The translations under genes and the position numbers were made by a program. 44,588 nucleotides of DNA from a virus. Numbering within the stretch: position 1 is the first letter of the stretch; every line of letters starts with the position of its first letter. This document shows, one piece after another, positions 13,125-44,588 of this stretch. The stretch lies in the IMG/VR virus record IMGVR_UViG_3300036791_000116, positions 1 to 44,588 of that record, one strand, 5' to 3'. The notes beneath the pieces are model-generated. The model was not told the DNA's origin. It did no database searches and was given only the letters and a program-made list of their open reading frames with translations.

Positions 13125-13137
13125 GTTTGACTCACAC
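13125..13137. repeat. 13-bp dyad motif copy
   Basis: GTTTGACTCACAC, 2 nt from giant-gene ATG 13122. Confidence 0.9.
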
Positions 13138-13166
13138 AGGTTTGAGGAAGGCGAAGCGGAGCGTAG

Positions 13167-13184
13167 TCCCTGCGAAGGCGGGGA
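13167..13184 (+). repeat. GC hairpin element copy
   Basis: TCCCTGCGAAGGCGGGGA, in the 66-nt gap upstream of the giant gene. Confidence 0.8.
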
Positions 13185-13188
13185 TCAG

Positions 13189-16079: not shown

Positions 16080-16092
16080 GTTTGAGTCAAAC
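16080..16092. repeat. 13-bp dyad motif copy
   Basis: GTTTGAGTCAAAC, between the stop at 16108 and the SD/ATG at 16066. Confidence 0.9.
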
Positions 16093-19381: not shown

Positions 19382-19394
19382 GTTTGAGTCAAAC
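19382..19394. repeat. 13-bp dyad motif copy
   Basis: GTTTGAGTCAAAC, between the stop at 19401 and tail-fibre ATG 19367. Confidence 0.9.
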
Positions 19395-24793: not shown

Positions 24794-24806
24794 GTTTGAC
24801 TCAAAC
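24794..24806. repeat. 13-bp dyad motif copy
   Basis: GTTTGACTCAAAC. Contains the scaffold stop (24801-24803), upstream of capsid ATG 24778. Confidence 0.9.
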
Positions 24807-25880: not shown

Positions 25881-28250
25881 CTATTGCATTGGTGTCATTT
25901 TGGCTAACGGCGACTTCTTGGGTAGAACGGGCGCAGACGCACCACCACCACCACCACCGGAGCCATTACCGGGTGGAGGCTGTGGCGCGCCTGGAGGCCC
26001 TCCCTGCGCAGCGTGCAGAGCCGCTACATGCTGCAACAGGTAGCTCATAATCATCTGTGGGCTGGCCCCTGAGTTCTTCATCTGTAGCACTTGCTGCTTA
26101 ACCTGCATCGGGATATTAGAAAGCAACTGCTCGATGTTCGCTCCAGGCTGCACACCCGGTCCCTGTGTCGGCGATGGCGTTGGCGCACCCGGCGTCCCAG
26201 GGTCTGCGCCACCCGGAGGCTGATCCGGTGCCTGCCCAGGCTGATTGCCGCCCGGTTGCGTACCCGTAGCCGATCCCGTACCCTGCCCGGTCTTCGCACT
26301 GATCTCGGCATCGATCGCAGCCCAATCCTCTGGCTGGATGACAACCTCGGTGAATGCCTGTTCGAGCACCTTGAGCATCACTTTCAGCGTCGCGCCCGGT
26401 GCAGCCTGCGCAAATTGCCCAACGGCCTGCGCAATCTGAATAGCCTCCTTTTTCTTGAATATGCTATTCGGCTTCTCCATACTGCCAGCGACGATTTCCA
26501 TATTGTACGTGCTATTGAGCATCGCGACACTCATAGGCTTAAAGAACTGCCCAAGCGCCGGCCCAATCAAACCGATCACGTCGTCCACGGTCATATACTG
26601 CACACACAATTCGGCAAGCGAAATGGCAATATCCGCAACCGCATCCTCCACAACGTCAACCTTGGCTCCGACCGAGAGCTTCATCGATTCCTGATATGTA
26701 TTAACAGCGTCCTCATTTGTGTTAGTCTTGAACTGCACTCCTCGCAGCGCATCGCTGGTATTGGTGATTCGGTTGATTGCATCCAACAAGTCTTGCTTAT
26801 TAAACAGTTCCTTGTACTGATCCATTCGTGGGTAAAGTGACTCAAACACATCTTGAATCTTGCCCTCGCCGGCCTTGACGCCACAGACATGCTTCTGGTC
26901 ACTCCCGACGTTCTCGCCACGGATGCCGTTTAGCATCTTCTCGATCTGATCGCTGTCCGTCTTGTCAGCGTTGTAGAAGAAATAATCGAACACGGACGTA
27001 CGCATACGTCGTAATTTGCGATTGATGACGTTAATTTCATCCTGCTGGTCTAGATAATACGACGACTCGCCCACGGCCACAGTGCCGCCGGTGCTCATTG
27101 TATAGCCTACAATGTAATATGGATAGAACCGACTGATATTCAGTGGGTCGTCCCATACCCATAACGGCCACGTCCAATCATCTCTGTGGAACAGCATGAC
27201 TCGTCGCGTCAGCTTGTCCCAAATCATGTAACACTCAGTCGTATACATATTCAGATAGGCTGTACGCTCGTCATCCGTGTGGTGCGTACTGTCGATACCG
27301 GCTTCCATCGCCTGTTGCACGAATCCCAAGCCGTCGTCGCGCTTCCCATCCGACGTATCGAACGAAGCCTTATGCGTAGGCTTGTAGATCAGCACACGAT
27401 TTCCGCCTTTGAGATCGTTTGACTCAGACGGCGAGTCGGGATCAGGTATAGTGAACCGCTGCGTGAGCATCGCCGTCGGCAAAAACACGCGCTCGGCCTG
27501 CCAATCCGCATCTGTGCCATCTTGCAATTCGGCATACGGATCGATAATCAGATTATGAGGCAGCACGTTATTCAGGCTGGGACCGCTTGGTTTCATCACT
27601 TCCATATTCATCTCCAAGGCTTCCATCTGCCCATAGAGATTCGATACCTCCTCTTGCGTCTTTGCGACAGCCAATTGCTGCGTAATTTGCGTCAATTGCT
27701 GTACTGCAACCTCTCGCGAGTCGTCTTTTCTGGTGTAATCCAGCTTCAAAACACCAAAATTGGTCAACAAACCGACACCAACACACTTCTTAATCTTCAA
27801 TTTTGCCCGCAGCGTCGTCCTGAACAACGTATTTATCAGCTTCTCCAACGCCTTGCAGAAGTCCTGATCTGTGCTGTCCGACGTACTGACTGTAATGTCG
27901 GGGTTCTTGCTGTAAACCGCCGGTAGCATCACGTTCAGATTCGAGAACACCACATTTTCCGTAACATCGCCGCGCTTAAACACGCCACGGGATGACTCGA
28001 TCGGACGGCCTTGGCTGTTGTTGTAATACCGAAATACCTCATCCCAGGCAATCGTAACCTGCTCGTACGCCTTGATTGCCGCATTGATTCTGCGCTGCCA
28101 CAGCTTGCCCACCGACGAACTGATCGCAATACGGCTACCCTCGTAGATGCGATATACCGGCTCCGGCTCATTGCCGGGCTTCGATGGCGTTGGTGCATCT
28201 TCACCAACATCATCAACATCAGTCTCGTCGGCGCCATATACGTCTGTCAT
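25881..28250 (-). CDS. portal protein (789 aa) with a low-complexity C-terminal extension
   Basis: Large ORF between TerL and the scaffold. C-terminal ~150 aa are Gly/Pro-rich with a Met/Gln-rich helix. The ATG has no SD and lies 2 nt from a motif copy. Confidence 0.75.
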   Translation of the reverse strand: MTDVYGADETDVDDVGEDAPTPSKPGNEPEPVYRIYEGSRIAISSSVGKLWQRRINAAIKAYEQVTIAWDEVFRYYNNSQGRPIESSRGVFKRGDVTENVVFSNLNVMLPAVYSKNPDITVSTSDSTDQDFCKALEKLINTLFRTTLRAKLKIKKCVGVGLLTNFGVLKLDYTRKDDSREVAVQQLTQITQQLAVAKTQEEVSNLYGQMEALEMNMEVMKPSGPSLNNVLPHNLIIDPYAELQDGTDADWQAERVFLPTAMLTQRFTIPDPDSPSESNDLKGGNRVLIYKPTHKASFDTSDGKRDDGLGFVQQAMEAGIDSTHHTDDERTAYLNMYTTECYMIWDKLTRRVMLFHRDDWTWPLWVWDDPLNISRFYPYYIVGYTMSTGGTVAVGESSYYLDQQDEINVINRKLRRMRTSVFDYFFYNADKTDSDQIEKMLNGIRGENVGSDQKHVCGVKAGEGKIQDVFESLYPRMDQYKELFNKQDLLDAINRITNTSDALRGVQFKTNTNEDAVNTYQESMKLSVGAKVDVVEDAVADIAISLAELCVQYMTVDDVIGLIGPALGQFFKPMSVAMLNSTYNMEIVAGSMEKPNSIFKKKEAIQIAQAVGQFAQAAPGATLKVMLKVLEQAFTEVVIQPEDWAAIDAEISAKTGQGTGSATGTQPGGNQPGQAPDQPPGGADPGTPGAPTPSPTQGPGVQPGANIEQLLSNIPMQVKQQVLQMKNSGASPQMIMSYLLQHVAALHAAQGGPPGAPQPPPGNGSGGGGGGASAPVLPKKSPLAKMTPMQ
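26835..26847. repeat. degenerate 13-bp motif copy (2 mismatches)
   Basis: AAGTGACTCAAAC, inside the portal CDS (FESL). Confidence 0.45.
27417..27429. repeat. 13-bp dyad motif copy
   Basis: GTTTGACTCAGAC, inside the portal CDS (SESN). Confidence 0.9.
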
Positions 28251-28252
28251 CG

Positions 28253-28265
28253 GTCTGACTCACAT
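28253..28265. repeat. 13-bp dyad motif copy (1 mismatch)
   Basis: GTCTGACTCACAT, 2 nt from portal ATG 28250. Confidence 0.7.
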
Positions 28266-28283: not shown

Positions 28284-28315
28284 GGGGCGCTTGACAGCAG
28301 GACTGCAAGCGCCCC
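28284..28315 (-). other. perfect 10-bp GC hairpin downstream of the PEP-CTERM-like gene
   Basis: GGGGCGCTTG (28284-28293) pairs with CAAGCGCCCC (28306-28315). No U-tract on either strand. Confidence 0.5.
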
Positions 28316-28351
28316 CGCTCATCAATCAGGCGTATAGTGATGGATGGTCAC

Positions 28352-29026
28352 CTACACGACAGAGAGTGACGAGCGTTTCCGACGGAGCCTGTTGAGCCCA
28401 AGCATCCCGAATAGAGCAGTAATCATGCCGGGCAGACCAGCGCCCAATATGGGACCAGGAACTGCACTGATATCAATACCGCCATTGAATTGGCCGGAGC
28501 CAACTGAATTGATGGTATATCGAACCTCGGCGCTGAACGGGTTAGTCTCCAATGCGAAGCTAGTGACATCGGCCGAAGCCGAGTTTGTCGTAACCACTGG
28601 GGTCGCCGCCAGCAACACGCCATTGATGAACGTCTGCTCCATTACGTTCCATCCGGTAGTGAGGCCGGTAACAGAGAACTCGCTTAAGAACGACTGGAGC
28701 GTTCCGGTGCCAGTGAGCCCCGCCGCGGTAACATCGAGGATCAGTTGATGATTACCGACAGCATTCGCCGCGATGTCCAGTGTGTTGGTGTTCAACTCAG
28801 CAGGCACGGCAAGCGCACTAGCCGAATTGATCGTCAGCGAATTGAGTAGGAAGGCAGCACCAAAATCGATGTTGCTGATGTCGAGAGTCGGCAAGCCACC
28901 ACTGTTGATCGTGTCAACCAGAACACCATCAGCCGTAGCATTGAGTGTGATGTTGTCAGCCCTTGCAGACGCCATTCCTAGTCCGACGCCAAGCACAGCG
29001 ACGGTAGCCAGTAGCAGTTGCCTCAT
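28352..29026 (-). CDS. secreted protein with a PEP-CTERM-like C-terminal sorting signal (moron)
   Basis: Signal peptide MRQLLLATVAVLGVGLGMASARA. Thr/Asn/Leu-rich beta-type body. C-terminus VPGPILGAGLPGMITALFGMLGLNRLRRKR (Pro motif, TM helix, basic cluster). AGGAGAG SD. Hairpin downstream. Confidence 0.7.
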   Translation of the reverse strand: MRQLLLATVAVLGVGLGMASARADNITLNATADGVLVDTINSGGLPTLDISNIDFGAAFLLNSLTINSASALAVPAELNTNTLDIAANAVGNHQLILDVTAAGLTGTGTLQSFLSEFSVTGLTTGWNVMEQTFINGVLLAATPVVTTNSASADVTSFALETNPFSAEVRYTINSVGSGQFNGGIDISAVPGPILGAGLPGMITALFGMLGLNRLRRKRSSLSVV

Positions 29027-29062
29027 TGCAGTCTCTCCTGTTGTGACGGTACCGCCGCCCCG

Positions 29063-29075
29063 GTTTGACTCACAC
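29063..29075. repeat. 13-bp dyad motif copy
   Basis: GTTTGACTCACAC, between the TerL stop at 29078 and the PEP-CTERM-like gene. Confidence 0.9.
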
Positions 29076-29077
29076 AG

Positions 29078-30589
29078 TCAGTACACTTTGTGATCTTCGA
29101 CTTCATGCCAATACGACCACTTGGGTGGCATCGCGTGCTCTGGCACAACAATCTTGCTCACTTCCGGCAGATACGAAAGCATATACTTTAGCGCATTCAT
29201 CGCATGGTCATTCGCATCCGTGGGCTCGTCAATACGCTGACCCATTGTATTCTGTTTCCAGTAATACGCCGTCATTTCGTCGCCAATGAATGCCAAATCG
29301 TCTGCGAAATACAGCAGCGGGCTCGGATCTTCCTTCGTGATTATATGTGGAACGCCCTTCTTTCCAGCCAAATAAGAATTAACCTTCGCAATGCCTGTGA
29401 CAATATCGTTGCTCGACGGGCGCATATAAATCCTGTCATCCTGATACAGCTTCGCAATTGTCGCTCCCGTCTCTCGCATCCCAGCAACAACAACTTTCTT
29501 GAATATCGCAGGATCGGCATGAATCCGATTGTTGAACATCAGCAATCCAGCATACTTTGCTCGTATATCTCTGATCGCTTGCGGCTGGAGATTGTAAGGG
29601 AAGTCGCTCTGGTAATACCCATCCAGTATAATGACTCTCCCACGGTCGTCCACGAAACCCATCAAATAACAACTCGGTGACACTATACCAAAATCATAAG
29701 ACTCAATTGCCTGAATCTGAACGTGGCGAAGTAGACACTCCGCAAGATAATTCTCGGCCTCCTCACGCGATATGGTGTGGACCGACGGGTCGTAATCAGG
29801 ATGGACCAAGCCCTCGAAGGCAACCCATTTTCCGAGCAGGAAACGGTCGCGCATCTGGCCTTTGTAAGTTGATTCGAGCCCAACAATGTAATCATGTGAT
29901 AAGTTATGCTTATTCGCATAAGTATCACTCTCAAACAACTCAATAATAGGCATACCCGTATCGGTATCAACAAGCAACTTCTCCACACGCTGGCCAGTCT
30001 TCAACCACAACAAATATGGCTGTATGAGTTCCTTGTAGAACCAATTGTGTGATGGGTTTGCCGTAAGCATAAGCCAACGCGGGCCTGTGGCGGGCATGGA
30101 CATATCTTCGTCGTCCGCCTGATAAGGCGTGTCGCCTCGAAGACGACCAAGGAGATCAAAGAAATCTTTGTGTATGATACCTGGGTCCTCGATCTGATCG
30201 ACCCCGACCCAATCATACGTTGCGGATAGAAGATTACTCGTCGAACTCCCATCATTGCGAGCCCTCCCGCGCTGCGATATGTACCGGAAATTGACAACCG
30301 AGCCATTCTTCATGTAGCACGTGTTGTCATCAATCGTGGGCTTTTTCAGTATCCAATCGATCGGACACCACTTGAAGAACACCTTGCGCAGTGTGTCATT
30401 CAGCTTCGGGTACGTCTCTCGCGCTAGCAATCCATTGCAGCCTGGATAATCCTTGACCAGCTTCAATGCCTTGACCGCTAGCGCCGTCGTCTTACCGTTC
30501 GCAAACGCACCACCGAATACCTGTATCTTCGCCCGGCTATGGTAGAAGCCGGACTGCACAGAACCTTCGATGAGCTTGTAATTCGGCAT
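29078..30589 (-). CDS. terL: terminase large subunit
   Basis: Walker A FGGAFANGKTT and Walker B WVGVDQIED. C-terminal RNaseH-like nuclease motifs (SYDFGI..., DANDHAMNALKYM). The ATG has no SD and lies 2 nt from a motif copy. Confidence 0.9.
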   Translation of the reverse strand: MPNYKLIEGSVQSGFYHSRAKIQVFGGAFANGKTTALAVKALKLVKDYPGCNGLLARETYPKLNDTLRKVFFKWCPIDWILKKPTIDDNTCYMKNGSVVNFRYISQRGRARNDGSSTSNLLSATYDWVGVDQIEDPGIIHKDFFDLLGRLRGDTPYQADDEDMSMPATGPRWLMLTANPSHNWFYKELIQPYLLWLKTGQRVEKLLVDTDTGMPIIELFESDTYANKHNLSHDYIVGLESTYKGQMRDRFLLGKWVAFEGLVHPDYDPSVHTISREEAENYLAECLLRHVQIQAIESYDFGIVSPSCYLMGFVDDRGRVIILDGYYQSDFPYNLQPQAIRDIRAKYAGLLMFNNRIHADPAIFKKVVVAGMRETGATIAKLYQDDRIYMRPSSNDIVTGIAKVNSYLAGKKGVPHIITKEDPSPLLYFADDLAFIGDEMTAYYWKQNTMGQRIDEPTDANDHAMNALKYMLSYLPEVSKIVVPEHAMPPKWSYWHEVEDHKVY

Positions 30590-30591
30590 GT

Positions 30592-30604
30592 GTGTGACTC
30601 AAAC
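30592..30604. repeat. 13-bp dyad motif copy
   Basis: GTGTGACTCAAAC, 2 nt from TerL ATG 30589. Confidence 0.9.
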
Positions 30605-32623: not shown

Positions 32624-32636
32624 GTTTGAGTCAAAC
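32624..32636. repeat. 13-bp dyad motif copy
   Basis: GTTTGAGTCAAAC, between the leader terminator and the first leftward gene. Confidence 0.9.
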
Positions 32637-33454: not shown

Positions 33455-33502
33455 CAACAACCAATCAACAACCAATCAACAACCAATCAACAACCAACAA
33501 TT
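33455..33502 (+). repeat. iteron array A: 11-bp unit CAACAACCAAT, about 4.3 copies
   Basis: Three exact tandem copies at 33455-33487, then CAACAACCAACAATT. Confidence 0.9.
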
Positions 33503-33551
33503 CAGAATGCAAGAAACCCCCGTAGAATGGGCACAAGTTGGTAGTGTGCGA

Positions 33552-33589
33552 TTTGTTTGATTGATGTTTGATTGGAGATTGGTTGTTGG
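33552..33589 (-). repeat. iteron-like array C (TTG-rich on the plus strand)
   Basis: TTTGTTTGATTGATGTTTGATTGGAGATTGGTTGTTGG: degenerate complements of the array A unit. Confidence 0.6.
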
Positions 33590-33670
33590 AGCCTCCCTTT
33601 GAAAGTGATTTTGCGGCGGGCAAATGTGCATTTTGGGGTCCGTGCCGGCGGGGCGCGTCGATTGTGGCAT

Positions 33671-33683
33671 GTGTGAGTCAAAC
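33671..33683. repeat. 13-bp dyad motif copy
   Basis: GTGTGAGTCAAAC, between iteron arrays C and B. Confidence 0.9.
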
Positions 33684-33704
33684 GTGTGGTTTGATAGATC
33701 GGCA

Positions 33705-33743
33705 TTTGTTGGTTGTTGGTTGATTGTTGGTTGATTGTTGATG
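33705..33743 (-). repeat. iteron array B, inverted relative to array A
   Basis: The minus strand reads CAACAATCAAC x2, then CAACAACCAAC, with an 11-bp period. Confidence 0.8.
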
Positions 33744-33845
33744 AAGTAGGTAGATGGGCGAAATGTCGGTTGCTTGGGAACATTCCGTGCCTTGCGGCGA
33801 GGTATGTTCCCAGCCCGGATGAATGATGGGACGCACGCCGCGTGA

Positions 33846-33904
33846 TCGATGGGGGCGATAGGCGATAAGCGATAGGTCGATAGGCGAGGGCGATGGGCGA
33901 TAGG
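33846..33904 (+). repeat. tandem array of about seven 7-8-bp CGATRGG units
   Basis: CGATGGGGG CGATAGG CGATAAG CGATAGGT CGATAGG CGAGGG CGATGGG CGATAGG. Confidence 0.8.
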
Positions 33905-33968
33905 CTCTAGAATGCGCTAGGAAGGCCGCTGGCGCGCTTTCGTGGGTCGGCCGCTAGGGTGGTAGCCT

Positions 33969-33981
33969 GTTTGACTCAAAC
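33969..33981. repeat. 13-bp dyad motif copy
   Basis: GTTTGACTCAAAC, 70 nt upstream of the P1 -35. Confidence 0.9.
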
Positions 33982-34050
33982 GCACGTGCGGCCATTTGTG
34001 GGCTTCCTAGAGGCTATTGCGGCAGGATGGACGCACATTGAAAAAATCGG

Positions 34051-34078
34051 TTGACCGACATGGGGAAGTCGCTATGTT
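34051..34078 (+). promoter_or_regulatory. rightward promoter P1 (sigma70-like)
   Basis: TTGACC (34051-34056), 16-nt spacer, TATGTT (34073-34078). A-tract TTGAAAAAATCGG immediately upstream. Confidence 0.5.
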
Positions 34079-34103
34079 GGCGATATCGAATCGATAGGGA
34101 GGT

Positions 34104-34127
34104 TGATTGCTGATGGATTGCTGATGG
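34104..34127 (+). repeat. 12-bp tandem duplication
   Basis: TGATTGCTGATGG / GGATTGCTGATGG. Confidence 0.7.
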
Positions 34128-35640: not shown

Positions 35641-36711
35641 ATGGCGATTAAGTTCCGTTTGAGTCAAACAGTGAGTAAACCGGCCCTTGTCGCGGGTCGG
35701 AAGGCGGTTCCCGCAAGGGCTCCGGCTGCGGTGGTCAAGGCTCCGCCGAAGGGTAGGGCTGAGACTGCGGCGGAGAAGGCCGCAAACGAGACTACCGGCG
35801 GTCTGGTGCCGATTAAGAAGTCGGCCTTGTCGCTGGACGTTGGTCCTCGCGTCATCCACGCGCTCTTTGCTAACTCGGAGCGTTTGGACGCGATCACCGA
35901 GGAGATGCACATACTCAAAAAGAGTTATGCGCAGTTGTCGGAACTAACCGCTGCCATTACCAAGGCGGCGAAGGCCGATACCTCTATCGACCTTACTTCC
36001 GCGTTCTCTGGGGAGGTTAAGCAGATCGCCAAGTTGAATAACCAGCTTGGCATTGCGCTTGGCTTCCGCGTGGTGCGGAAGGGTGAGCCTGACAAGAGCG
36101 GCGTTGCCTATGACGCCGTGGTGACCAGTGAGAGCGTCGCTGATTGCTTCCCCATGCCTGGGGAGGACAAGAAGCTGCCCGCGATCCGGCGGAAAGAAAC
36201 CTTCCGCAGCAACTTCATGACACAACTTAAGAAGTGTGCCATGGCCGCGCACGCGATCATCGAGAACGATATCGATGCGCGGTTCGACACCAAGGCTGGC
36301 ACGTTGCTGATCTCAGGACCGGCCGTTCGTAAGCATTTCGGGCAAGAGCGAGTTTTGCTCGATGAGCGGAAAACGGTCGGGAGTGGCGACGCCAAGGTGG
36401 AGTTGAGCGAGAAGCCCAGCTTCACGGCGCTTGCCAATATCGGCGCGGCGTCGCAAGGTGTCGCGCCAGCGGTGGCTGGCTCCGGTGGAGCGCAGCACCG
36501 TGGCAACAACCCAGGAACCGTTGGCGGTACGCAAGCCGTCGCGGCAACGAAAGCTGCCGAGGTTACGGGCAAGGAGAGCATCGACGCGGCGATCCTGACT
36601 ATCTGCAAGGCGCTGCGGACGACGCTGGAAAAGGCCAAGGAACTGAGCAAGAACGCCATTGCGGCTCTTGAAGAGACAAAGAACGCAATTGACGTGCGGC
36701 TCACGAACTGA
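35641..36711 (+). CDS. early protein of unknown function (356 aa) with an Ala/Lys/Pro-rich N-terminal tail
   Basis: Driven by promoter TTGACA-17-CATAAT (35570-35598). GGAGG lies 8 nt upstream of the ATG. Motif copy at codons 6-10. Confidence 0.75.
   Translation: MAIKFRLSQTVSKPALVAGRKAVPARAPAAVVKAPPKGRAETAAEKAANETTGGLVPIKKSALSLDVGPRVIHALFANSERLDAITEEMHILKKSYAQLSELTAAITKAAKADTSIDLTSAFSGEVKQIAKLNNQLGIALGFRVVRKGEPDKSGVAYDAVVTSESVADCFPMPGEDKKLPAIRRKETFRSNFMTQLKKCAMAAHAIIENDIDARFDTKAGTLLISGPAVRKHFGQERVLLDERKTVGSGDAKVELSEKPSFTALANIGAASQGVAPAVAGSGGAQHRGNNPGTVGGTQAVAATKAAEVTGKESIDAAILTICKALRTTLEKAKELSKNAIAALEETKNAIDVRLTN
35657..35669. repeat. 13-bp dyad motif copy
   Basis: GTTTGAGTCAAAC, codons 6-10 of the 35641 gene (RLSQT). 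Confidence 0.9.
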
Positions 36712-43977: not shown

Positions 43978-44588
43978 ATGGCAAGCGCCCCATTTAAGAT
44001 TGGGCCGGTGACGGTGCAGGCCGGACGGGAGATATCGAAGCGCATGAGCGTGCTTATATGGGGCGCTGCCGCCTGTGGCAAAACCTCATTTGCAGCCACG
44101 GCACCGGGAATTAAGCTGTGGCTGTCATTCGGAGATCAGGAGCATGTGTCGGTAGCGCATAGGCCGGACGTGTGTGTTGCTGATCTGTCGAAGCTATCAT
44201 CGGAGGAGTTGTTCAAGCACGCATTGAGTGACAACCCATTCGGTATGGATCAAATACTTGCGCAGCGCACGGATATACAGACGGTGGTATGCGACTCGGC
44301 AACAGCGTTGGTGTATCAGGCATTGCAGCGATCGGTAGAGAAGGGCGTTGGCGCGGGTAGGCGTGGGTTTGTGCCAACGATCGAGGAGCCTGGGCAGGCG
44401 GCGTACGGCGCTCGCAATGCGTTGATGCTCAAGGTGTTGACAGGGTTGTTAAGGGTCACGGCGAAGCATGGTGTGCATCTGATCGTCACCGCGCATGAAG
44501 CTGATCCGGTCATGGAGATACGTGACGGCAAGGAGGTAGTGAGTCACATAGGCGTTATGCTTGGTGGCCAGCTTGTCAACAATGTGAC
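43978..44588 (+). CDS. RecA-fold AAA ATPase (Sak4/AAA_24-like), 5' part; continues at base 1 through the circular junction
   Basis: Not in the ORF track because there is no stop before the window end. ATG 43978 follows AAGAGGAAG. Hand translation: MASAPFKIGPVTV...; Walker A WGAAACGKTS; Walker B TVVCDSAT. Confidence 0.8.
   Translation, partial: MASAPFKIGPVTVQAGREISKRMSVLIWGAAACGKTSFAATAPGIKLWLSFGDQEHVSVAHRPDVCVADLSKLSSEELFKHALSDNPFGMDQILAQRTDIQTVVCDSATALVYQALQRSVEKGVGAGRRGFVPTIEEPGQAAYGARNALMLKVLTGLLRVTAKHGVHLIVTAHEADPVMEIRDGKEVVSHIGVMLGGQLVNNV
44462..44588 (+). repeat. terminal overlap (identical to 1-127)
   Basis: Exact 127-nt identity. Signature of a circular assembly. Confidence 0.95.

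Follow-up and report, generated by a model that had tools for sequence, protein, structure and literature searches.

Why would a tailed soil phage carry, between its terminase and portal genes, a gene for an apparently secreted protein whose C-terminus resembles the sorting signals of bacterial surface proteins? This question is raised by the IMG/VR virus record IMGVR_UViG_3300036791_000116, which was analyzed over its full length of 44,588 nucleotides (hereafter the window). An earlier note, made from the sequence alone, had pointed to a 224-aa open reading frame (ORF) in this place, here named X224, and had described it as a phage moron encoding a signal peptide, a beta-type body and a tail of the exosortase/PEP-CTERM class. 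The ORF was confirmed and lies on the minus strand (Table 1), and both flanking genes, encoding the terminase large subunit (TerL) and the portal protein, were identified by PHROGs matches. X224 is a real gene: its frame, body and tail are conserved in approximately 107 homologues, which is more than chance would produce. It is also a true moron, an accessory cassette in a swap-prone slot. Its tail, AVPGPILGAGLPG-TM-RLRRKR-SSLSVV (TM, transmembrane segment), lies outside PEP-CTERM and the other curated CTERM families, yet is PEP-CTERM-like in position, architecture and exchangeability. The reading that is new here, and partly supported, is that of a phage moron whose envelope-protein product is routed by the host through a PEP-CTERM-like signal belonging to a class not yet curated.

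A mobile and modular cassette between TerL and portal

As the basis for judging whether X224 belongs to the core of this genome, we used 28 IMG/VR relatives of the phage, whose TerL proteins are 77-97% identical to that of the window. An X224 homologue was present in none of the 28, which bears out the moron status claimed for the TerL-portal junction. The corresponding interval of the relatives is either empty or holds other, envelope-directed cargo of different lengths (Table 1), including small 2-TM membrane peptides. The slot occupied by X224 is bounded by copies of GTTTGA[G/C]TCAAAC, a motif that recurs throughout the window.

Using 17 closer homologue sequences for the search of related loci, X224 homologues were found in 23 viral loci (19 from IMG/VR and four from metagenomes) that have nothing else in common with the window. 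The neighbors of the gene change from one locus to another: it follows an Amidase_3 endolysin, stands in an early region beside GcrA and VRR-NUC, or separates the terminase small subunit (TerS) from TerL, and homologues also occur in 77-81-kb phages with primase and helicase genes. No relative of the X224 gene or region was found among GenBank phages by megablast and tblastn, and a two-peptide-motif scan of 185,579 GTDB genomes, which distant cellular relatives would escape, returned no relative of the body. The close X224 family is known from viral contigs only, and the cassette is mobile between unrelated phages. The possibility that X224 is a compositionally foreign gene was considered and rejected, as base composition gives no such mark (GC 0.55 versus 0.551 for the genome, with GC3 in range).

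The closest relatives (L114 and L139; TerL 97%) carry in the same slot a 229-aa gene, Y229 (L114:7559-8248 and L139:7556-8248). Its product has a signal peptide, and similarity of its body to that of X224 was not detectable, BLASTP aligning the tail only. The Y229 tail VPTVPIPAALPLFAGGLGLMGWLSRRRKRSST alone scores 18.5 bits against the generic PEP-CTERM cutoff of 16 and approaches VPLPA-CTERM (TIGR03370), for which PLPA-type tails score 17-19 bits against a cutoff of 25.35. A homologue search with Y229 gave full-length matches that are all metagenome proteins. The family (P0108-P0139) has the tail form [VT]P[LI]PAALPLFAGGLGLMGW-RRRK, and two of its members, P0124 and P0139, carry a GAGLPG tail like that of X224 where a PLPA tail is the rule. 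The Y229 body is marked by two invariant motifs, W-C-x-D and Q-L-A-I-W. Its structural model, with a predicted local distance difference test (pLDDT) of 68.5, gave one outlying PDB match (5a0g_A, E 2.5e-3; the next at E of at least 1), which is the thioester (TED) domain of a Clostridium perfringens surface protein. Judged from this model, Y229 would be a phage-borne thioester-type adhesin with a CTERM signal, and both CTERM-tailed slot cargos, X224 and Y229, look like extracellular adhesin-type domains. A second stereotyped tail, [TV]P[LI]PAALPLFAGGLGLMGW(L/M)(S/A)RRRK, was also seen on more than 40 unrelated metagenome proteins (P0140-P0183), below the VPLPA-CTERM cutoff; by its sequence it is probably another under-curated CTERM class.

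Comparison of the X224 and Y229 loci reveals a mosaic. The window is similar to L114 and L139 from the end of TerL through the 5' untranslated region (UTR), the Shine-Dalgarno (SD) sequence and the signal peptide to approximately position 28950, shows background identity over the body and sorting motif, and is similar again from the motif copy before the portal gene. The 19-nt segment CCGTCGGAAACGCTCGTCA, which encodes RRKRSS, is 100% identical in L114 and L139 despite the unrelated bodies. The X224 5'UTR is about 75-80% identical to those of the unrelated-body cassettes in L114/L139 and L147, as are the 5'UTR and signal peptide together to those of the Y229-type gene P0129 in a different phage; a near-identical signal peptide is found on the Y229-family proteins P0129, P0119 and P0126. 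At the other end, X224 agrees with the P0124 cassette of a different phage over the tail, the stop codon and the beginning of the 3'UTR (GTAGGTGACCATCCATCA). Since these flanking parts are common to other cassettes and the body is not, X224 represents an export/sorting frame with a swapped body. The SD sequence, the upstream motif copy and the downstream 10-bp hairpin are all present as the earlier note had stated; that they are the gene's own needs qualification, because the frame to which they belong (5'UTR, SD and signal peptide on one side, tail and 3'UTR on the other) recurs in other phages.

The C-terminal tail and its bacterial counterparts

Haft et al. (2006, PMC1569441) define PEP-CTERM signals by a near-invariant PEP motif together with a TM helix and a basic cluster; the carriers have signal peptides, occur multiply per genome, co-occur with EpsH and are connected with the biology of exopolysaccharide (EPS), of soil and of the outer membrane. 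Bradyrhizobium, Nitrobacter and phages are unmentioned in that paper. The C-terminus of X224 reads in full A188-VPGP-IL-GAGLPG-MITALFGMLGL-N-RLRRKR-SSLSVV. As in the PEP-CTERM/exosortase system (EpsH, Xrt; TIGR02595, PF07589), and especially the alphaproteobacterial PEPxxWA-CTERM signals (NF035944), this tail is strictly C-terminal, follows the order of V-P-x-P motif, Gly-rich TM helix, Arg/Lys cluster and short extension, and ends a protein with an N-terminal signal peptide. The PEP-CTERM-type architecture is present in X224 (residues in Table 1), which ends at residue 224. The tripartite C-terminus stands as first given, with six more residues, SSLSVV, after RRKR; a short extension of 3-8 residues after the basic cluster is also seen in bacterial GAGLPG tails. 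Unlike PEP-CTERM, the X224 tail has Gly in place of the near-invariant Glu, an extra conserved GAGLPG block and a register that is three residues longer.

Membership in the PEP-CTERM class itself, for which a search with TIGR02595 and its variants had been proposed, did not hold up. Neither the whole protein nor isolated tails matched TIGR02595 or PF07589 at E<=10, the protein and its tail had no match to TIGR03370, and PHROGs gave nothing useful for X224; PFE-CTERM came up only at E 0.16. Isolated X224-type tails align only to the generic TM and basic portions of CTERM models, and ten other GAGLPG tails score 9-13 bits against the PEP-CTERM cutoff of 16. As a positive control, 12-13 homologues with VPEP tails do match the same models. 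The Pro-Glu-Pro element is not found in X224, which has V-P-G-P, Glu being replaced by Gly or, in relatives, by A/S/V/M/L/I; the absence of this glutamate is why the curated models are not matched.

A homologue search with X224 yielded 107 clusters, which are metagenome proteins plus one Nitrobacter protein from a metagenome-assembled genome (MAG) labelled 'hypothetical'. Among 108 family members, approximately 84 have VPxP-xx-GAGLPG tails, 14 have PEP tails of the form VPEPxTW(A/G)MM.. that match TIGR02595, PF07589 and PEPxxWA-CTERM (best E 1.6e-10), and about ten have [TV]PLPA.. tails with weak VPLPA-CTERM matches (such as P0054, P0070 and P0076). When 40 homologues spanning these three tail classes were aligned, 12-13 matched TIGR02595/PF07589/PEPxxWA-CTERM and three matched VPLPA-CTERM, all at the place taken by the VPGP tail in X224. 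No column of the alignment is invariant except those of P190 and P192. Thus, homologues of the X224 body bear true PEPxxWA/PEP-CTERM tails at the very same place. VPLPA-CTERM (TIGR03370) and [TV]P[LI]PAALPLFAGGLGLMGW-RRRK tails are likewise non-PEP VPxP variants and are found on some X224-body homologues and on the alternative slot cargo; the difference from VPLPA-CTERM is that the X224 tail itself has no TIGR03370 match. On a neighbor-joining tree of the bodies only, which was not bootstrapped, the three tail classes are interleaved (polyphyletic), and this indicates repeated tail swaps.

In the choice-of-anchor families of NCBIfam, one extracellular domain is combined with different C-terminal sorting signals. 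The X224 body family, with one body and at least two C-terminal signals, fits this concept: it carries three such signals, but matches no named choice-of-anchor family. The reading of the VPGP..GAGLPG tail as a sorting-signal-type module rather than an arbitrary anchor is supported by these sequence comparisons, since the tail is exchangeable, forms a class in bacteria and is present on other phage cargo. The sorting-signal claim of the earlier note was therefore sustained insofar as the tail is swapped at the same site for PEP-CTERM/PEPxxWA tails and, weakly, for VPLPA tails, and failed insofar as X224 is no member of a curated family.

To assess the tail in bacteria, a genome collection was scanned with a strict back-translated DNA pattern for PGP[hydrophobic]2GAGLPG, so the following counts are lower bounds. 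The scan gave 87 stretches, among which 49 ORFs (75-372 aa) in 46 loci have the tail architecture: they terminate 29-37 residues past the motif, with a hydrophobic stretch and RRR, in the general form [A/P]VPGP[IV]VGAGLPGL..W-RRRR. GAGLPG is present in these tails by construction, being part of the search pattern. At positions that the pattern does not impose, V precedes PGP in 47/49 ORFs, L follows GAGLPG in 46/49, W stands ahead of the basic cluster in 32/49 and RRR occurs in 41-44/49. The remaining matches, mainly from Streptomyces and other high-GC taxa, lack the tail architecture and serve as an internal control. Many of the 49 ORFs begin with obvious signal peptides, and similarity of their bodies to X224 was not detectable. 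Twenty of the loci belong to Bradyrhizobium and about 19 to uncultured soil Alphaproteobacteria, with a few on short contigs binned to other phyla. Individual genomes have several tails on diverse proteins (5-6 in B. centrosematis LMG 29515, four in Bradyrhizobium sp. McL0615, and multiple ones in MAGs too). In this the class resembles PEP-CTERM, as the GAGLPG tail is carried by many unrelated small secreted proteins, several per genome, of outer-membrane soil bacteria. A tblastn search of the consensus tail against plasmids gave no match, probably owing to the short, filtered query.

Some further features of the bacterial loci were noted. GAGLPG-tail genes are often paired in one locus (cases among L034, L069, L086, L048, L050, L084, L093, L097 and L107). 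In L034, L069 and L086 their neighbor is an EPS polyprenyl glycosylphosphotransferase that falls below the cutoff of the XrtA-associated subfamily. Several tail loci have a GC content of 0.55-0.60, and Bradyrhizobium genomes have a higher GC content than this, a hint of variable regions. Twelve multi-pass ORFs were found in the 46 loci: judged by eye they are transporter-like (MFS, RND, permease, EamA), and a sugar-phosphate transferase and a histidine kinase among them were confirmed by NCBIfam. The EPS sugar transferase and glycosyltransferases near tail genes are below the XrtA/XrtY-associated cutoffs.

Based on these tails, Bradyrhizobium-like Alphaproteobacteria are the likely hosts, because the same tail is abundant on dissimilar secreted proteins of such bacteria. 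The idea that the tail constrains the host was thus borne out, the same tail ending dozens of dissimilar secreted proteins. A check of candidate hosts for both tail proteins and a sorting enzyme had been suggested, and it succeeded for the tails only, the enzyme having been looked for within the 8-kb tail loci. GcrA-like genes point to alphaproteobacterial hosts, given the distribution of GcrA, and GcrA neighbors the X224 homologue in some phages.

A remote GAGLPG-tailed clade (P0095, P0097, P0102 and P0103) includes the Nitrobacter vulgaris MAG protein. A hidden Markov model (HMM) of the body only reaches just P0095 (4.6e-8) and P0097 of this clade; firm homology of the Nitrobacter-type P0102 and P0103 to X224 was therefore downgraded, and their genomic context gives only indirect support. 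Both P0103 (L113:1-11880) and P0102 (L111) are flanked by a Trypsin_2 protease. The L113 contig contains an EPS cluster, in which a WcaF-family acetyltransferase and a Wzy-like polymerase score above their cutoffs and are accompanied by GT4 and GT2 glycosyltransferases and an acyltransferase_3; in L111, a weakly choice_anch_C-like protein and an IS66 element lie near P0102. No exosortase-like gene was seen beside the remote relatives in these two contigs.

Proposed role of X224 and competing explanations

At the N-terminus, MRQLLLATVAVLGVGLGMASARA/DN shows the n, h and c regions typical of a Sec signal peptide, with hydropathy (KD15) up to 2.35 and an AlphaFold2 (AF2) helix at residues 3-16; the two agree with the Sec-type signal peptide described earlier, and comparable N-termini were seen in 91/99 full-length homologues. 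X224 contains no cysteine and hence no lipobox. The beta-type body noted before was likewise recovered by AF2, with 12 beta strands and pLDDT >90 across residues 24-189. Its Foldseek neighbors are carbohydrate-binding modules (CBM6/35/61/4) and phage tail-fibre CBM-like domains, the best ones in PDB and BFVD. The modeled body is a beta-sandwich of similar size and topology class to CBM6/35/61/4, but TM-scores are only 0.3-0.5, so 'lectin-like' is a lead, not a result. No Pfam CBM family matched X224, the sole Pfam match being PKD_5 (E 0.26), and a PDB sequence search gave nothing. As a lead from the model, the body may be CBM-like and might bind sugars.

We consider it somewhat more probable than an even chance that X224 is a host-sorted surface-protein moron, whose product is exported, anchored, sorted by a host enzyme and changes the cell surface. 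X224 would be exported by Sec, with the signal peptide removed after ARA23. The C-terminal Gly-rich helix would then hold it in the inner membrane with RLRRKR in the cytoplasm, and VPGP..GAGLPG at the periplasmic face would be recognized by an exosortase-like host sorting enzyme, which would cleave the anchor and pass X224 to the cell surface or exopolysaccharide layer. There, the 165-residue CBM-like sandwich might bind envelope polysaccharide and so give the infected cell a different surface. This could mask a glycan receptor, which would guard against superinfection or keep progeny from being lost on debris, or it could alter aggregation. The sequence evidence suggests that the phage redecorates the host surface through the host's own machinery, and a surface/EPS context is consistent with the EPS cluster beside the remote relatives and with the thioester-like CTERM cargo in the same slot.

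Several observations weigh against host-enzyme sorting of a glycan-binding X224. No curated CTERM model of NCBIfam or Pfam is reached by the whole protein or its tail, and profiles of GAGLPG and PEP tails align in the TM and basic parts only, with an hhalign probability of 25%. An exosortase partner was not found: no exosortase-like multi-pass protein is encoded within the 8-kb loci around the 46 bacterial tail genes, and we therefore infer, rather than observe, processing of X224. No sigma-70-like promoter was found for the gene. The phage gives no direct clue to its host: it has no tRNAs and no close cultured relatives, its TerL and DNA polymerase being only 21-26% identical to those of cultured phages. 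Phage GC is 55%, versus 55-66% in the bacterial tail loci. The fold match to CBMs is weak as well, since a Foldseek probability of about 1.0 is accompanied by TM-scores of 0.3-0.5, a root-mean-square deviation of 7-14 Å and an identity of 5-15%.

Two of these points, the lack of a CTERM model match and of a sorting enzyme near the bacterial tail genes, would be expected if X224 were a plain bitopic membrane protein. Its tail would then be a stop-transfer anchor that tethers the uncleaved, unsorted protein in the inner membrane, facing the periplasm, where it could act on DNA injection by other phages (Sp-/Imm-like exclusion) or on polysaccharide export. A type I anchor would have just this positive-inside topology, and the same slot elsewhere holds small 2-TM membrane peptides. 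However, a plain anchor would not need an invariant VPxP and a GAGLPG block conserved on 49 proteins with dissimilar bodies, nor would one expect genuine PEP-CTERM and VPLPA-like signals to have taken its place on one body again and again; we regard this explanation as possible but rather doubtful. A signal sequence with a C-terminal TM segment is also the architecture of a lysis accessory, that is, a unimolecular-spanin-like bridge of the inner and outer membranes, and one homologue lies just downstream of the Amidase_3 endolysin. Such a role is very improbable, given the missing cysteine, the 165-residue globular beta-sandwich, the changing position between phages and the absence from 28 close relatives, which have to lyse their hosts all the same. 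Harder still to credit is a part in the virion or in packaging, as a head decoration, a portal-associated protein or a tail protein. The place between TerL and portal in the late module and the loose likeness to CBM-like tail-fibre domains would suit it, but a protein with a cleavable signal peptide and a membrane anchor cannot take part in virion assembly in the cytoplasm, the 28 relatives without X224 have TerL, portal and all other genes of the module in common, the gene stands among early genes in other phages, and it has no paralogue in the window.

A bolder version of host-enzyme sorting, which we hold only tentatively and think improbable as a whole, is that the VPxP-xx-GAGLPG tail belongs to a distinct, undescribed sorting system of Bradyrhizobium-like soil Alphaproteobacteria. 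Phages would exploit it through a portable surface-display cassette, in which 5'UTR, signal peptide, tail and 3'UTR are conserved, different adhesin-like bodies, such as a CBM-like sandwich and a thioester domain, are recombined in-frame and the tail is matched to the host.

Envelope-protein morons or conversion genes are known from lambda (Bor, Lom), T5 (the lipoprotein Llp) and Staphylococcus aureus prophages (the LPXTG sortase substrate SasX). X224 is like them in being optional, in its variable late-region slot, in having translation signals of its own and a hairpin downstream, and in its proposed envelope routing by the host, and surface alteration or exclusion would by analogy be a plausible role. 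It differs in that its putative routing signal is exosortase-type rather than a lipobox or LPXTG, in that no integrase was matched among the phage ORFs tested, and in its modular cassette, whose body is exchanged in frame while signal peptide and tail are conserved. To our knowledge, the only counterpart of a phage-borne sorting substrate is a prophage sortase substrate in Gram-positives. In full-text literature searches no description of the GAGLPG tail was found, and a PEP-CTERM domain was mentioned only in passing, for a Dehalococcoides mobile element; searches on phage PEP-CTERM, Bradyrhizobium exosortase, GAGLPG and PEPxxWA found nothing relevant.

Should a host enzyme process the tail, X224 would be an example of phages carrying exosortase-type sorting substrates in Gram-negatives. 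The tail class would then serve as a sequence-only host marker for uncultivated soil phages, with GAGLPG indicating Bradyrhizobium-like hosts and PEPxxWA or PLPA other Alphaproteobacteria, on one body family. It would also expose an abundant uncurated C-terminal signal in Bradyrhizobium, among the commonest soil genera. The in-frame swapping of bodies between a conserved signal peptide and tail is a compact natural case of modular surface-protein evolution on mobile elements.

Features of the locus and of the phage genome

The coordinates of the cassette, its flanks and the corresponding slots of relatives are collected in Table 1. The public JGI gene call for X224 (P0001) has 207 aa and starts at Met18, 17 codons late, leaving out 28976-29026; the 224-aa start is backed by the SD sequence and by all homologues. 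Because the later start loses the signal peptide, automated annotation would overlook secretion. The copy of the motif in front of X224 lies 36 nt upstream, the usual spacing elsewhere being 2-15 nt before start codons. The 110-nt region around the 3'UTR hairpin has a fold z-score of -3.25; the hairpin lacks a U-tract and hence is no canonical intrinsic terminator, nor did it score as one.

Table 1. Elements of the X224 cassette in the window, and contents of the TerL-portal slot in related phages
Feature	Position or locus	Strand	Details	Basis
X224 ORF	28352..29026	-	224 aa	
Signal peptide	28958..29026	-	residues 1-23, MRQLLLATVAVLGVGLGMASARA; predicted signal peptidase I site ARA/DN	hydropathy, AF2
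Mature body	28466..28957	-	residues 24-187; predicted 12-strand beta-sandwich, CBM/jelly-roll-like	AF2, Foldseek
VPGP motif	28451..28462	-	residues 189-192; positional equivalent of VPEP in PEP-CTERM	
GAGLPG motif	28427..28444	-	residues 195-200; signature of the tail class	
Gly-rich hydrophobic TM segment	28394..28450	-	residues 193-211, ILGAGLPGMITALFGMLGL	AF2 helix 197-222; KD15 1.6-1.65
Basic cluster RLRRKR	28373..28390	-	residues 213-218; predicted cytoplasmic	sequence
C-terminal extension	28352..28372	-	SSLSVV and stop codon	sequence
3'UTR hairpin	28284..28315	-	10-bp perfect stem, GGGGCGCTTG/CAAGCGCCCC	folding
Cassette 5'UTR	29027..29062	-	SD AGGAGAG (29033-29039), 6-nt spacer to ATG	sequence
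Upstream motif copy	29063..29075	-	GTTTGACTCACAC; genome-wide palindrome-like GTTTGA[G/C]TCAAAC	
Motif copy ahead of portal	28252-28264		degenerate	motif scan
TerL, upstream flank of slot	29078..30589	-		PHROG terL families, best E 4e-12
Portal protein, downstream flank	25881..28250	-		phrog_12082, E 7.5e-21
Slot of 138 nt (empty)	L128		hairpin, one motif copy, then portal ATG	
Slot of ~260-300 nt	L115, L116		57-66-aa membrane peptide	
Slot of ~520 nt	L124		95-aa ORF and 57-aa membrane peptide	
Slot of ~810-850 nt	L114, L139, L129, L141		other genes	

The phage is tailed, has a genome of about 44.5 kb and its own replication genes, and encodes a Dda-like helicase, DNA polymerase, deoxynucleoside monophosphate (dNMP) kinase, TerS, TerL, portal, major head protein, tail fibre and a 2155-aa giant protein. 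At its two ends (1-127 and 44462-44588) the window has a direct repeat of 127 bp with 100% identity; it is either a terminal redundancy or a circular-assembly overlap, and on its account the window is probably a complete phage genome.

The motif GTTTGA[G/C]TCAAAC, with up to two mismatches, has 38 copies in the window versus 0.86 in shuffles (for example at 13125-13137, 16080-16092, 19382-19394, 24794-24806, 30592-30604, 32624-32636 and 35657-35669). In the structural module it lies 2-15 nt upstream of the starts of most major genes (giant protein, tail fibre, major capsid protein, TerL and TerS), at the place expected for the SD sequence; it could be a promoter/operator, a translation signal or a recombination site. 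Tandem 11-mers CAACAACCAAT (three copies) and GTTGATTG-type repeats were found at 33455-33497, 33555-33743 and 34101-34126. This repeat zone (33455-34126) is intergenic, at the point where the minus-strand late and plus-strand early modules diverge, and is a candidate origin, iteron or regulatory region. A GC-rich intergenic hairpin element, GTCCCTGCGAAGGCGGGGATC, occurs at 1045-1082, 1806-1843 and 13151-13188, and also in the empty TerL-portal interval of relatives (L128:1650-1680). Finally, the plus-strand ORF at 39418-39885 matches a PHROG phosphoheptose isomerase of the moron/auxiliary metabolic gene category (E 2e-8) and, by this similarity, is possibly a second envelope-related (lipopolysaccharide core) gene of the phage.

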